Of a stretch of 50,744 bases of DNA, positions 24,371 to 32,236 are shown piece by piece. The notes under the pieces were generated by a model, which was not told where the DNA came from, searched no databases, and worked only from the letters and a program-made list of their open reading frames with translations. Numbering within the stretch: the stretch's first letter is position 1; each line of letters starts with the position of its first letter. The stretch is taken from the sequence record SRR22947725_1095; one strand, 5' to 3'. Position numbers and translations under genes: made by a program.

Positions 24371-24398
24371 ATTTAACATAATATAAATTATACGAACA
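24371..24398 (-). other. dif: dif site (XerC/XerD recombination site)
   Basis: The minus strand reads TGTTCGTATAA-TTTATA-TTATGTTAAAT: an exact canonical XerD arm, a 6-bp core and a XerC-like arm, inside an AT-rich intergenic region. Confidence 0.9.
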
Positions 24399-27573: not shown

Positions 27574-28794
27574 TTATCTTCCCTGAATTTCCATCTTTTT
27601 ATTGACATAGTTCAGCAATAAAGAGATAAATAGTGAAATGACTAGATAAACAAGCATCGCCATGGCTAGAATTTCTACTGCCTGGCCAACTTGATTTAAA
27701 ACAGTTCCTCCAAAAGTACTCATTAACTCTGGATAGCCAATTACGGTAGCTAAAGATGAGTTTTTTGTAAGATTCAAATACTGGTTAATTGTTGGCGGTA
27801 TTGCAACCCTAAGGGCTTGTGGCAAAATAATAAGTTTAAGTGATTGAACGGGTGTCAAGCCAATCGCAGCTGCAGCCTCTTTTTGTCCCTTGTCAACTGC
27901 CTCAATACCTGATCGAATGGCCTCAGCAATATAGGTTGCAGTATAAACACTAAGAGCAAACGTTAATGCTAAAAACTCTGGCACAACTGCCATTCCACCC
28001 TTTAAGTTAAATTTACCTAGAACGGCAAAGTCAAATGCCAGTGGAGATCCAAATACCAGATAAACAAGAATTGGCAGACCAAGAATTAAACCAATTGAAT
28101 ATGGCCATGTACTGGTGTGAATACCAGTTAGTTCATGCTTCTTCTTATAGGATTTCTTAATAAAATAAGCTGCAATGATTCCAATGATGAATGCAAATAC
28201 TACGTATATGAAACCCTCTTCAGGGATTGGTTTGGGTAAATACAAACCTCGTTGATTTAGAAATGCAAGATCAAAAAATGATAGACTTTGCTTTGGGTGC
28301 GGAAAAACATTAATAAATAAGTTATACCAAAATAAAATTTGAAGAAGTATAGGAATGTTTCTAAAGAGCTCTATGTAGCCCCCTGCTAGCTTAGCAACAA
28401 GATAATTATTTGAAAGTCTTGCGATACCAATAAGAAGTCCTATTAGCGTCGATAAAATGATTCCAATAAAGGCGACAACAAGTGTGTTAATTAATCCCAC
28501 ATAAAAAACAGTTAAGTTTGAAGATTCAGGGGTGTAGTCAACCGCAATATTGCCTAAAAAAGGGAGTATGTCAAAGCCTGCTCTATTTTTTAGGAATGTA
28601 AATCCAGTTTGGATGCCTCTATCTTCAATATTTTGAAAGAGGTTTCCTATTGCTGTATAAAAAAGCCCTATTACCAGAACAAAGGTAATGACTTGGAATA
28701 AAAAAGACCTGACTTCGTTGTTATAAAGTAGATCTCTAAAGTTTGATCCTCTGTGTTGAGATTTTCCTAAGGATTCGAGGATAAGTTTTTTCAT
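27574..28794 (-). CDS. aapQ: General L-amino acid ABC transporter permease
   Basis: GLINTL, RNIPILLQILFWY, AEAIRSGIEAVDKGQKEAA, QYLNLTKNSSLA. Confidence 0.9.
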   Translation of the reverse strand: MKKLILESLGKSQHRGSNFRDLLYNNEVRSFLFQVITFVLVIGLFYTAIGNLFQNIEDRGIQTGFTFLKNRAGFDILPFLGNIAVDYTPESSNLTVFYVGLINTLVVAFIGIILSTLIGLLIGIARLSNNYLVAKLAGGYIELFRNIPILLQILFWYNLFINVFPHPKQSLSFFDLAFLNQRGLYLPKPIPEEGFIYVVFAFIIGIIAAYFIKKSYKKKHELTGIHTSTWPYSIGLILGLPILVYLVFGSPLAFDFAVLGKFNLKGGMAVVPEFLALTFALSVYTATYIAEAIRSGIEAVDKGQKEAAAAIGLTPVQSLKLIILPQALRVAIPPTINQYLNLTKNSSLATVIGYPELMSTFGGTVLNQVGQAVEILAMAMLVYLVISLFISLLLNYVNKKMEIQGR

Positions 28795-28858
28795 AAATTG
28801 CTAAAAATTTGAATATGAATATTTTACTAAATATAGTGTTTCTAAGTTTGAAAAAATC

Positions 28859-28897
28859 AAAAAAAAACCAGACTGCTAAAGTATAGCAGTCTGGTTT
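28859..28897 (-). terminator. Intrinsic terminator / mRNA-stabilising hairpin after aapJ
   Basis: 14-bp stem AAACCAGACTGCTA (28865-28878) / TAGCAGTCTGGTTT (28884-28897) with a 5-nt loop and a U-tract on the minus strand. Confidence 0.85.
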
Positions 28898-28918
28898 AGG
28901 TTCTAACTAGATAATTGC

Positions 28919-29926
28919 TTATCTAAATGGAGGTGAGTAAAGAATACCACCTTGTGACCATAGTGCGTTAACACCACGAGCAATACCAATTGGAGTAGAA
29001 AGTCCAATGTTACGCTCGAAGCTTTCAGCATAGTTACCTACTTGCTTAACGATTTGGTAAGTCCAGTCTGGAGTCAGACCAACATACTCATGAGTGCTTC
29101 CTGAACGACCCATTAAGCGCTCACGCTCTGGGTTGTTAGAAACATCATCAACGTTACCACTGTTAACACCAATTTCTTCTGCAGTAATCATAGCGTTTAA
29201 AGACCATCTTACAATGTTGAACCATTGATCGTCACCTTGACGAACAACAGGACCTAGAGGCTCTTTAGAAATGATTTCTGGAAGTACTACATGCTCTGAA
29301 GGATCATTTGCACCTGCACGCATTGAGTAAAGACCAGAAGCATCAGTTGTTAATACATCACAACGTCCAGCGTCATAGTTAGTTAGAGTTTGAGCATTAG
29401 TATCTGATACAACTGAGTTGTACTCGATTCCATTTGCTTTACCCCAATCAGCTAAGTTCAATTCAGTAGTAGTACCTGCTTGAATACAAATTGCAGCACC
29501 ACTTAATTCCATAGCACTAGAAACACCTAGAGAAGACTTAACCATAAAGCCTTGTCCGTCATAGTAGTTAACACCAGCAAAGTTCAATCCTAATGAAGCG
29601 TCACGAGTAATTGTCCAAGTCGTATTTCTAGACAACATATCGATCTCACCAGATTGTAGCGCAGTGAATCTTTCCTTAGCGGTTAATGGTACAAATTTAA
29701 CTTTAGTTGCATCGCCAAGCGTTGCAGCAGCAACAGCACGACAAACATCAACGTCAATACCAGTCCATGTACCAGACGAGTCAGCTGAAGAAAAACCAGC
29801 AAGACCTTTAGAGACACCGCAAGATACGTGTCCTTTAGCCTGAACGTCGCTCAAAGTAGAAGCCTGTACACTAAGTGCACCAACAACTAACAATGAAGCA
29901 GCAGACAATTTTAATAATTGTTTCAT
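28919..29926 (-). CDS. aapJ: General L-amino acid ABC transporter substrate-binding protein (start at 29926, not 29968)
   Basis: GIDVDVCRAVAAA, RFTALQSGEIDMLSRNTTWT, ISKEPLGPVVRQGDDQW. An AAGGAG RBS precedes MKQLLK and a signal peptide. Confidence 0.93.
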   Translation of the reverse strand: MKQLLKLSAASLLVVGALSVQASTLSDVQAKGHVSCGVSKGLAGFSSADSSGTWTGIDVDVCRAVAAATLGDATKVKFVPLTAKERFTALQSGEIDMLSRNTTWTITRDASLGLNFAGVNYYDGQGFMVKSSLGVSSAMELSGAAICIQAGTTTELNLADWGKANGIEYNSVVSDTNAQTLTNYDAGRCDVLTTDASGLYSMRAGANDPSEHVVLPEIISKEPLGPVVRQGDDQWFNIVRWSLNAMITAEEIGVNSGNVDDVSNNPERERLMGRSGSTHEYVGLTPDWTYQIVKQVGNYAESFERNIGLSTPIGIARGVNALWSQGGILYSPPFR

Positions 29927-29990
29927 ATATATCTCCTTAATGAGTTTCAAAGTATAAAAAACCTTCACAATTGAATGAGGTTCACAGAAA

Positions 29991-30020
29991 ATTTTAACAC
30001 TAGTTAATCAAGTAATACAA
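29991..30020 (-). promoter_or_regulatory. Candidate sigma-70 promoter for aapJ
   Basis: The minus strand reads TTGTAT-18 nt-TAAAAT with a TG extension (TGtTAAAAT). The AT-rich background lowers specificity. Confidence 0.4.
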
Positions 30021-30298
30021 ATTAATTATTAAAAAAAAATTTAAATCAATTCAACTAGCAAGGCTTGATTTTTGCTATTAAAGCGATAATATCCTCTAAT
30101 TAACATCTAGAAAAGTTGAATTAAATTCAAGTATTTAGATTCTTTTTATTTAGCTGAGAAATTGTTTTTATAAAGAATTTGATTAGATAATGCTAACAAT
30201 CTTAATGTATTCATTATAAATTAAATTGTTCTAATTCAATGAGTTATACAGAAATTAGTTAAATATTACATGTATTTTTTTTGTTATTATAAGTAATT

Positions 30299-30336
30299 TT
30301 AGTTATTTTTTACCTATAGTGGTATAAAATAACTAA
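30299..30336. promoter_or_regulatory. 38-bp near-perfect inverted repeat (candidate operator) overlapping an extended -10 element upstream of HTH-nadE
   Basis: TTAGTTATTTTTTACC-TATAGT-GGTATAAAATAACTAA, with 15/16 arm complementarity. It contains TGgTATAAA at 30320-30328 and ends 25 bp before the ATG at 30362. Confidence 0.65.
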
Positions 30337-30361
30337 TATATAGTTTAATTAATGAAACACA

Positions 30362-32236
30362 ATGATCATCAAAACTACCGAATACCTAGCAATGGTGCGT
30401 GATAAAACAGGTTATTCTGATTATAAAATAGCTAAAGAATATGACATTAATCAGTCAAATCTTAGTAAATATAGCTCTGGAAAGGCTGCTTTAAGCGAAA
30501 CACACGCTTGGTTGATCGCTAATATCCTTGATATAGACCCTGCTGAGGTTGTTGCAAATACTAAATTTGAACACGCAATAAATACAGGTAATAACTCGAA
30601 GGCCAAATTTTGGCAAGAACAGTTAAATAAAATATTTTCTGAATCCTCACCAATCAGAATACAAATCGCACAATTTAACCCTATTGTTGGGGATATTAAG
30701 TTGAATGCACAAAAAATGCTTGATTTGTCTATTGAGGCTAATAATGCTGGAGCTCATTTAATTATATTTCCAGAGTTGGCCTTGACTGGCTATCCTCCTG
30801 AAGATTTATTGTTTCGAGATGGATTTACTAATCAGGTCAAAGAGGAAATAACAAATTTCTGTAATTTGGCGCCCTCAGACATTTCAATTTTATTTGGTGC
30901 ACCGAACAAAACTGATGACTTTCTTTTTAATAGCGCCTATCTTATTCAAAATAATCGAATCATTAATATTTACAACAAGCAAGAATTACCAAATTATGGT
31001 GTTTTTGATGAAAAACGTTATTTTTCATCTGGTGATGATTCTTTTGTATTTGAATGTCAAAATACCAAAATAGGTGTATTAATTTGTGAAGATCAATGGG
31101 TCGAAGGCCCTATTTCAAATTTATGTCAATCGAATATTGATATTGTCATTTCGCTTAATGCCTCACCATTTCAACTTAATAAGCAAAGTGAGCGCATAAA
31201 TATCTGTAAAAATTATGCTTTAAAGTTTTATATTACCTTTATTTATGTGAATATGGTGGGTGGTCAGGATGAAGTTGTATTTGACGGTAACTCCTTTATT
31301 GTTAATAATCAGGGAGATGTATCACTTCAACTCCCAGCCTTTAAAGAGTTGAGTGTTTCTCATATTGACACAACATTTACCCCTTCTTTAGTTAGTAATG
31401 AATCTTTAATTTATTCTGCCATTGTTTTAGCTACAAAGGACTATATTCAAAAAAATAATTTTGGCGGTGCTTTAATTGGTTTATCTGGAGGTATTGATTC
31501 TGCTTTAACTTTAGCAATTGCTGTTGATGCAATTGGTGCAGAAAATGTTCATGCGATAATGATGCCATATCAATTTACCTCTGATATTAGCCTAACAGAC
31601 TCCGAGCTTCAAGCTGAGACTCAGGGCGTAGAGTTTTCTAGTATCGATATCCATTCAATGGTTGACTCCTTTAACTTATCACTGAGTGATCAATTTAGAA
31701 ATACTTCTAGAGATACTACTGAAGAAAATATTCAGTCACGAGTCCGTGGAACTCTTCTAATGGCTTTATCTAATAAATCTCATAAGCTTGTCCTTGCAAC
31801 AGGCAATAAGTCTGAAATGGCTGTTGGTTATGCAACATTGTATGGTGACATGTGTGGCGGATTTGCTCCACTGAAAGATATATCAAAAACTATGGTTTAT
31901 CAACTAGCAAAATATCGTAATACATTATCTAATGTCATTCCTGAAAGGGTAATAACTAGGCCCCCTTCTGCAGAGCTTGCGCCTGACCAGGTTGATCAAG
32001 ATTCACTTCCGTCTTATGATATCTTGGATGATATTTTGATGAAATTTGTAGAGCAAAAACAGTCTGTTAATGAAATTATAGAAAATGGACATAGCTCTGA
32101 AGATGTTATTAAGATTACTTCTTTAATCTTAAGAAATGAATACAAAAGAAGACAGTCTGCCCCTGGGCCCAAAATAAGCAGCAATGCCTTTGGAAAAGAA
32201 AGGCGTTACCCTATGACGTCAAAGTTTAAACCTTAG
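30362..32236 (+). CDS. nadE: Glutamine-dependent NAD+ synthetase with a fused N-terminal Xre/phage-repressor-like HTH domain
   Basis: Nitrilase triad (IFPEL, YNKQELPNY, LICED) and synthetase motifs (GLSGGIDS, ENIQSRVRG, TGNKSE..VGYATLYGD). Residues 1-92 carry the HTH pattern SDYKIAKEYDINQSNLSKYSSGK. Confidence 0.93.
   Translation: MIIKTTEYLAMVRDKTGYSDYKIAKEYDINQSNLSKYSSGKAALSETHAWLIANILDIDPAEVVANTKFEHAINTGNNSKAKFWQEQLNKIFSESSPIRIQIAQFNPIVGDIKLNAQKMLDLSIEANNAGAHLIIFPELALTGYPPEDLLFRDGFTNQVKEEITNFCNLAPSDISILFGAPNKTDDFLFNSAYLIQNNRIINIYNKQELPNYGVFDEKRYFSSGDDSFVFECQNTKIGVLICEDQWVEGPISNLCQSNIDIVISLNASPFQLNKQSERINICKNYALKFYITFIYVNMVGGQDEVVFDGNSFIVNNQGDVSLQLPAFKELSVSHIDTTFTPSLVSNESLIYSAIVLATKDYIQKNNFGGALIGLSGGIDSALTLAIAVDAIGAENVHAIMMPYQFTSDISLTDSELQAETQGVEFSSIDIHSMVDSFNLSLSDQFRNTSRDTTEENIQSRVRGTLLMALSNKSHKLVLATGNKSEMAVGYATLYGDMCGGFAPLKDISKTMVYQLAKYRNTLSNVIPERVITRPPSAELAPDQVDQDSLPSYDILDDILMKFVEQKQSVNEIIENGHSSEDVIKITSLILRNEYKRRQSAPGPKISSNAFGKERRYPMTSKFKP

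Follow-up and report, generated by a model that had tools for sequence, protein, structure and literature searches.

Fusions of an enzyme with a transcriptional repressor are rare and serve as textbook models of the cross-talk between metabolism and transcription. BirA, a biotin ligase and repressor, and PutA, a proline dehydrogenase and repressor that represses its own gene, are the classic trigger enzymes. In the metabolism of nicotinamide adenine dinucleotide (NAD), NadR of Enterobacteria combines a helix-turn-helix (HTH) domain with a nicotinamide mononucleotide adenylyltransferase and a ribosylnicotinamide kinase, and controls nadA, nadB and pncB. C (controller) proteins, in turn, autoregulate via tandem palindromic boxes upstream of their own gene. 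As far as the available parts of the respective publications go, Xre-type C proteins fused to restriction endonucleases exist (PMC3850674), an archaeal riboflavin kinase/regulator, RbkR, has been found by comparative genomics (PMC5397151), and glutamine-dependent NAD+ synthetases of type 2, NadE(Gln), are controlled post-translationally, by NAD+ feedback at an allosteric site and by PII (PMC7196632). Here we describe a nadE gene whose product, in the following HTH-NadE, carries an Xre/cI-type HTH domain ahead of a glutamine-dependent NAD+ synthetase. It lies at positions 30362 to 32236 of record SRR22947725_1095, a stretch of 50,744 nucleotides, the whole of which we refer to as the window.

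We propose, with a probability of roughly 0.7, that HTH-NadE is a bifunctional enzyme and repressor, a negative autoregulator with its own gene as the single target. The in silico basis of this proposal consists of the fusion itself, its conservation, the fold of the HTH domain, operator-like boxes in the nadE promoter and the exclusive link of these boxes with fused nadE genes; DNA binding, repression and ligand control would follow from it. By analogy, HTH-NadE would work like NadR, BirA and PutA, the trigger enzymes with fused DNA-binding domains. The gene and its domains are arranged as follows:

30362..32236, plus strand: complete coding sequence of the HTH-NadE fusion, 624 residues plus stop, from open reading frame, Pfam and NCBIfam evidence
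30362..30649, plus strand: residues 1-96, the HTH region, with a five-helix Xre/cI-type HTH, then the C-terminal part of H60-75, then helix H78-94; the recognition helix is N30-Q31-S32-N33-L-S-K36-Y37
30650..31396, plus strand: residues 97-345, nitrilase-type glutaminase domain with E138, K206 and C242, from Pfam, NCBIfam, alignment and structure matches
31397..32233, plus strand: residues 346-624, NAD synthetase domain of the ATP pyrophosphatase type, whose SGGIDS loop spans 375-380

An earlier note on this DNA had described a reading frame of 624 residues with an HTH ahead of the nitrilase domain, no start codon at the junction and intact catalytic motifs, and each of these points holds. In Pfam, HTH_3 (PF01381) matches residues 10-62 with 29.4 bits in the isolated N-terminal piece and 25.4 bits in the full protein (gathering cut-off, 23 bits), CN_hydrolase covers residues 102-336 and NAD_synthase residues 351-598 (241 bits). 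The NCBIfam equivalog PRK13981, 'NAD+ synthase', matches residues 97-623 with 721.4 bits, well above its cut-off of 479. Codons 52-113 contain no in-frame ATG, GTG or TTG; the next candidates, TTG114 and ATG119, fall past the first strand of the nitrilase domain (E100-104), and no internal start is conserved among the 27 orthologues compared. Since a usable internal start is missing, the enzyme can only be made with the HTH attached. E138, K206 and C242, which we take to be the Glu-Lys-Cys triad, are invariant in 23 aligned sequences, as is the loop S375-G-G-I-D-S380. Judged by its sequence, the C-terminal stretch of 528 residues should function as a glutamine-dependent NAD+ synthetase, and it falls into the short class of about 540 residues. 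Among known structures, this part is nearest to proteins of about 550 residues (5kha, 566 bits; 4f4h, 493 bits), and the Mycobacterium tuberculosis octamer 3dla is distant (105 bits). NadE(Gln) of type 2 is described, in the available part of the source, as dimeric and allosterically inhibited by NAD+ (PMC7196632); equating the short class with this type 2 is our own step. A complex prediction for two copies of residues 1-96 scored 0.17, with the mark at 0.32, and counts neither for nor against their pairing.

That the fusion is real and conserved is as good as certain. With residues 1-100 as query, 522 matches were obtained among proteins of 343-1092 residues. All of the 120 matches listed are 624 residues long, 119 of them carry HTH_3, CN_hydrolase and NAD_synthase, and they come from many separate assemblies; those among them with a named source are NAD+ synthases or synthetases of Candidatus Pseudothioglobus singularis. 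At the genus level, 20 of 25 species have an uninterrupted full-length match; in the remaining five, either the genome is only 57-78% complete or a contig end truncates the gene. The family Thioglobaceae, which makes up its whole order in our collection, is represented by 122 genomes. The HTH profile matches 106 of these, including 71 of the 73 high-quality genomes, and 18 of the 19 genera; it is single-copy in every matched genome but three (G086, G089, G098). The HTH-bearing frame is 611-687 residues long, shortened in about eight genomes by a contig end or break, and the identity of full-length matches within the family goes down to 45%. In the genomes of the family, nadE is the sole match to the query at 1e-30 or better, mostly as one entire gene. 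With this distribution, the fusion is no artefact of a single assembly.

Sixteen genomes of the family gave no HTH match. Twelve of them are incomplete (54-89%) and have no strong nadE match at all, and in three (G010, G053, G124) only the C-terminal part of nadE is left, at a contig end. The remaining one, G043 (genus g19, 99% complete), encodes an intact NadE of 533 residues without the HTH, the family's only complete HTH-less nadE (locus L031, G043:C10); neither a free-standing HTH copy in the genome nor boxes upstream of its nadE were found. A 37-row tree of the enzyme portion, built with a quick method, groups this NadE with the deep fused lineages at an SH-aLRT support of only 75%, and its HTH-less state may reflect a loss of the HTH or a branching before the fusion. 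Some copies are irregular: the HTH is split across two frames at G098:C1:83893-84178 and contains a single in-frame TAA at G110:C69:13718-13999, while a second, incomplete copy in G086 (G086:C117:31504-31776) contains a TAA; these three may be assembly errors or decay. G089 has a second HTH copy at a contig end.

Outside the family, the NadE proteins of 16 other families of the class were surveyed for architecture and no HTH was found on them; their matches start at residue 83-110. Likewise, a profile search of 1.84 billion representative proteins returned only two full-length fusion representatives (624 and 622 residues) among its best 150 matches. From these searches we conclude that the fusion is real and old and, within what was searched, occurs in Thioglobaceae alone.

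The HTH segment is under purifying selection, as the reading of the earlier note requires. Over 378 pairs, mean pairwise identity is 72% for the HTH (residues 1-66), 54% for the tail (67-96), 53% for the nitrilase and 68% for the synthetase domain, so that the HTH is conserved at least as well as the enzyme. Its dN/dS ratio is 0.03-0.16, values that are rough because dS is mostly saturated (above 0.8 in most pairs). Eighteen HTH residues are invariant among 28 sequences, including I29, N30, Q31, S32, N33, K36 and Y37 in and next to the recognition helix. In the HMMER alignment, Q31 and S32 coincide with the QS pair in the recognition helix of lambda cI, residues that make base contacts there.

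The fold agrees with this picture. An AF2 model of the domain, built from a 23-sequence alignment, has six helices and a pLDDT of 92.4, and on this model Foldseek confirmed the expected HTH as an Xre/cI repressor fold. The top matches include ImmR, C.AhdI (second-best), TP901-1 CI, lambda cI, DdrO, SinR and 434 Cro, with probabilities of 0.91-1.00, target-normalised TM-scores (TMt) of 0.46-0.72 and E-values of only 0.04-0.4, which is usual for such a small domain. Every match inspected is an Xre/Cro/cI DNA-binding domain.

A candidate binding site for the domain lies directly upstream of the gene. A 15-bp box, GGTAWAAAATAACTA, occurs as an inverted pair on the nadE core promoter (30300-30335), accompanied by a weaker third copy:

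30321..30335, plus strand: proximal box O1, GGTATAAAATAACTA, with a 13-bp near-palindromic unit GGTA-N5-TAAC; it overlaps the -10-like TAATAT
30300..30314, minus strand: box O2, reading GGTAAAAAATAACTA on this strand, in opposite orientation to O1; the 15-mer starts are 21 bp apart
30256..30270, minus strand: degenerate third box, TAGTTAAATATTACA on the plus strand, a conserved block in the genus alignment

The earlier note had seen here a long palindrome on the gene's own promoter. With arms at 30296-30314 and 30321-30339, 19 nucleotides each, 89% complementary and 6 nucleotides apart, this turns out to be a conserved operator-like element that co-occurs with the HTH. All fused genes examined are preceded by the motif GGTAAAAAATAACTA or a variant. 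In most relatives, a box with 2-3 mismatches stands at about -107, comparable to the third box of the window. More generally, each promoter contains two to four GKTA-N5-TAMC units at a spacing of about 19-21 bp, i.e. two helical turns; with the spacer relaxed to GKTA-N5-6-TAMC, 46 units are found in 28 upstream regions, compared with 1.0 +/- 1.0 in shuffled sequences. At 13 bp, the unit would have the size expected for one HTH dimer. In the genus alignment, positions -65 to -24 are nearly invariant within an otherwise diverged AT-rich spacer.

These boxes are found at nadE and hardly anywhere else. The two exact 15-mers of the window are both in the nadE promoter, and so are all exact matches in four complete genomes of the genus. 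Across the 122 genomes, the degenerate pattern GKTAWAAAWTAACTA has 100 exact matches, of which 86, in 67 genomes, lie at most 250 bp upstream of nadE; the remaining 14 are scattered like the matches of a reversed-pattern control. A site of 13 bits or more precedes 26 of 28 fused genes and none of nine HTH-less nadE genes (that of G043 and those of eight genomes from other families); the remaining locus DNA, 122 kb, contains a single such site. At the level of pattern matches, the boxes are thus exclusively linked with fused nadE genes.

In the mechanism that we envisage, the enzyme subunits would bring their HTH domains into pairs, each of which would bind one GKTA-N5-TAMC unit, a near-palindrome of 13 bp. 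The two to four units, spaced by about 19-21 bp, would cover the nadE core promoter, and their occupancy would block RNA polymerase, so that NadE would limit its own synthesis. In a possible further step, occupancy of the enzyme by NAD+, nicotinic acid adenine dinucleotide (NaAD), ATP or glutamine would shift its affinity for DNA and thereby tie nadE transcription to NAD or nitrogen status. We hold it very probable that HTH-NadE binds the boxes and, given binding, probable that the effect is repression; ligand control of DNA binding appears conceivable, at somewhat less than even odds.

The promoter region has further features, which bear on how such a repressor might act:

30334..30339, plus strand: -10-like hexamer TAATAT, putative, aligned with the TATAAT of other genera
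30357..30360, plus strand: starts of contigs from RNA libraries of three studies, with no loose ends; a weak hint of the mRNA 5' end
30234..30246, plus strand: upstream box ATTCAATGAGTTA, conserved; relatives carry AATCAAnnnnTTA, and the copy in the window has one mismatch to the IHF consensus as we assume it

In other genera, the TATAAT is perfect; a box directly adjoins it, and another unit is located on its downstream side. The RNA-library contigs that start at 30357-30360 span the junction between HTH and nitrilase, which hints weakly at an mRNA start a short way downstream of the boxes and at expression of the fused message; such contigs usually lose their first bases, give no start, strand or level, and are not evidence where parts are uncovered. 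The upstream box of the relatives, AATCAAnnnnTTA, fits what we take to be the IHF consensus, WATCAANNNNTTR. Of the 28 fused upstream regions, 16 have an IHF-like box between -107 and -138, mostly near -130, compared with 1.3 in shuffles; this box might bend the DNA for a higher-order repressor complex or be part of the divergent promoter.

As for its surroundings, nadE is monocistronic; its upstream neighbour is divergent and its downstream one, a pabB-like gene, convergent. No prophage genes were found flanking it. The earlier note had placed a dif site about 6 kb away and taken it as a sign of phage origin. The site is there: 24371-24395 (minus strand), about 6 kb upstream of nadE, has three mismatches to the dif consensus that we presumed for the call, and no such site arose in 100 shuffles. 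Its closeness finds no support as evidence of a phage, however. A single dif-like site lies 4-7 kb upstream of nadE, on the same side, in all five complete genomes, which represent four genera (G008, G021, G085, G094, G048), and the two transporter genes checked between site and gene (27574-29968) are housekeeping genes, which makes the proximity look like ordinary synteny.

Phage kinship is indicated instead by the domain itself. It matches phrog_4441 with an E-value of 4e-14 over 2-88 of 98 profile positions, and also phrog_638; both families are matched by all eleven proteins scanned, i.e. ten free-standing relatives and the window's own domain. These relatives, of 99-161 residues, have the whole module in common with HTH-NadE, including the 'TKLExA...FW' tail. 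The closest of them, P0130 (41% identical), is encoded on a phage-like contig of 3.3 kb (L057 1-3311), divergent from four small reading frames and a Phage_GPA/G2P rolling-circle replication gene. A more distant one, P0142, has homologues in 71 phage records, including the inovirus phiSHP2, whose ORF150 aligns with the NadE HTH profile at 77% hhalign probability over 83 columns; ORF150 adjoins ORF112 and points away from the Zot gene. As a lead only, matches in a protein atlas include clusters with HTH_3 and DUF3693 and one cluster with 55% viral members, most commonly Hofneiviricota. Because of the PHROG matches, the free-standing kin, the replication gene beside P0130 and ORF150 of phiSHP2, a phage-repressor origin of the HTH is likely, and a link to inoviruses is possible. 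The ancestry suggested in the earlier note is in this respect partly supported. Against it, the RstR model (NF041951, a family of CTX-type inovirus repressors) gives 23.1 bits for the domain and 26.9 for its best relative at a cut-off of 80, which places them outside that family, and a tblastn search with the domain against 50,697 phage records had no match at 1e-3. The free-standing relative P0133 had no match in the same records either, and no confirmed relative emerged from a search of viral contigs with P0130 or profile A1 or from a scan of genome contigs with P0130.

Some side observations concern these relatives. One of the small reading frames on L057 matches a crAss001_48-related family. 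Five of the proteins (P0130, P0132, P0133, P0139, P0149) have a conserved ...(F/C)ILC C-terminus, in several cases after a hydrophobic stretch, which might anchor a repressor-like protein in the membrane or signal its lipidation. Further matches of the profile search (P0134, P0138, P0137 and P0141) have 2 to 8 tandem HTH modules (e.g. 1002 residues with eight matched stretches).

How should the boxes and the fusion be read together? A metabolite-sensing trigger enzyme, in which an allosteric NAD+ site or the substrate occupancy of a dimeric type-2 synthetase sets operator binding, is a tentative extension of the autoregulator, at less than even odds. It competes with a loop without sensing, in which binding to the gene's own promoter is independent of metabolites and simply steadies the copy number of the enzyme in regulator-poor genomes. 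Many small Xre repressors autoregulate without a ligand, the boxes are found at nadE only, and the sequence does not indicate a ligand switch. Yet a free-standing repressor gene would do as well for plain autoregulation, whereas fusion to a ligand-binding enzyme offers an obvious route to allostery, as in BirA, PutA and NadR. According to the available part of the source, type-2 NadE moreover has an allosteric NAD+ site (PMC7196632). We hold the loop without sensing to be quite possible, though less likely than not. Positive autoregulation, with the HTH activating the nadE promoter, would suit an mRNA start near 30357-30360, which would put the centre of O2 near -51, a position used by some activators; it is nonetheless unlikely, as O1 overlaps the -10-like hexamer and, in other genera, the arrangement of a box abutting TATAAT with a unit downstream is the typical layout for occlusion. 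The HTH might also not bind DNA at all and have a structural or protein-contact role, the boxes being promoter elements or sites of another factor. They do contain a -10-like sequence, and the conserved IHF-like box shows that other factors may act at this promoter. The recognition-helix residues, however, are invariant family-wide, and the boxes are near-palindromes that recur two to four times in helical phase, are absent before the nine HTH-less nadE genes and are matched elsewhere only by the 14 scattered sites that resemble those of the reversed control; we therefore regard a non-binding HTH as quite improbable.

Two wider roles fare worse. In favour of a NadR-like master regulator of the whole NAD pathway, the 3H domain of NiaR, and NadR above its cut-off, are each found in none of five complete genomes, so that these two known NAD regulators are missing from the pathway (NrtR and NadQ were not searched). 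Across four genomes of four genera, however, 15 of the 16 regions upstream of nadA, nadB, nadC and nadD lack a site of 9 bits or more, the lone 12-bit match among them is not conserved, and exact matches gather genome-wide at nadE only. A wider NAD regulon is accordingly very improbable, and we reject it for want of boxes before these four genes. The earlier note had also considered that the domain confers superinfection immunity as a prophage repressor, in keeping with its phage-related family. This has not been borne out and seems to us extremely improbable: there are no flanking prophage genes, the HTH exists as one fused copy in 18 of 19 genera, and even genomes of 1.0-1.2 Mb have retained it in this form, the boxes are at nadE only, and no close phage homologue turned up in the phage and viral collections searched.

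Several observations weigh against the repressor proposal. The boxes are AT-rich and include the -10-like sequence, so that their conservation may in part be promoter conservation, and at two of the 28 fused loci (L020, L021) the 15-mer is matched with just 11-12 bits, although related GTATTTTTTAAC-type units are kept. A consensus scan of 29900-30450 gave four promoter-like sites, compared with 5.0 expected; none of these and no sigma-70 pair fell on the boxes, and a terminator was not found. A transcription start downstream of the boxes is tentative, because contig X1 from a fourth RNA run (30135-30567) extends across them, and libraries of this kind may include DNA. The oligomeric state of the fusion, on which pairing of the HTH domains would depend, is presumed from sequence similarity. 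Finally, besides the roughness of the dN/dS values, constraint on the HTH appears relaxed in the most reduced genomes: four g28 genomes of 1.0 Mb (G075, G076, G079, G084) score 115-142 bits on the HTH profile, compared with 166-172 bits for eight other genomes of this genus, and in the symbiont-sized pair L018/L019 the HTH changes faster (dN 0.124) than the two enzyme domains (0.084 and 0.058). In these genomes, the function of the HTH may be dispensable and the regulation decaying.

A published description of the HTH-NadE fusion was not found in the full-text literature, supplements being outside that search, which agrees with the earlier note's impression of a new architecture. In a survey of the NAD synthetase family (PMC3376133), the main text contains no occurrence of 'HTH', and its supplementary tree or tables might list unusual architectures. 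In the literature found, no paper describes an enzyme-repressor fusion based on an NAD synthetase. HTH-NadE documents how a core housekeeping enzyme took up a phage repressor-like domain, and it is fixed across a whole family of bacteria with small genomes, which comprises very abundant marine sulfur oxidisers and heterotrophs as well as symbionts of invertebrates. Given a precisely defined operator on its own promoter only, the prediction is directly testable. If the metabolite-sensing reading is true, HTH-NadE would stand for a further, undescribed class of NAD-responsive transcription factors beside NadR, NiaR, NrtR and NadQ, and might be the sole transcriptional control of NAD synthesis in SUP05/Arctic96BD-19 bacteria and their relatives in clams and mussels.

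Among the known systems, NadR is similar in that an enzyme of the NAD pathway and an N-terminal HTH share one chain, with repression being a prediction in the case of HTH-NadE. The enzyme, however, is NadE here, and NadR controls several operons, whereas the boxes of HTH-NadE are at its own gene only. The two are also distinct families, as CN_hydrolase and NAD_synthase follow the HTH and the NadR model TIGR01526 scores above its cut-off in none of the five complete genomes. With BirA and PutA, HTH-NadE has in common that catalytic and DNA-binding domains form one conserved polypeptide, and that an operator, here a predicted one, lies in a promoter of the cognate pathway, as the operator-like boxes (86 of 100 exact matches; 26 of 28 fused genes versus 0 of 9) suggest in silico. 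The folds differ, being a winged HTH and a ribbon-helix-helix in those proteins, and so does the ligand switch, which is proven for BirA and PutA and hypothetical for HTH-NadE. The phage-related kin, phrog_4441, phrog_638, Pfam DUF3693 and ORF150 of phiSHP2, are homologous over the HTH and the tail helix, but are free-standing proteins of 100-160 residues, often with a hydrophobic C-terminal tail, and none is fused to an enzyme.

The remaining comparisons follow the available parts of the sources. Fusions of C proteins resemble HTH-NadE in carrying an N-terminal Xre-type HTH on an enzyme (PMC3850674), in line with C.AhdI as the second-best fold match; they belong to mobile restriction-modification systems without a metabolic link, whereas the partner here is a housekeeping cofactor enzyme. 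Type-2 NadE(Gln) is of the same short glutamine-dependent class, going by the nearest structures 5kha and 4f4h, but its control is exerted after translation, and neither 'HTH' nor 'helix-turn-helix' occurs in the available text (PMC7196632). RbkR, lastly, is likewise an enzyme of a cofactor pathway joined to a DNA-binding domain; it differs from HTH-NadE in being archaeal, in its enzyme and in controlling several riboflavin genes (PMC5397151), where HTH-NadE would control just one gene, its own.

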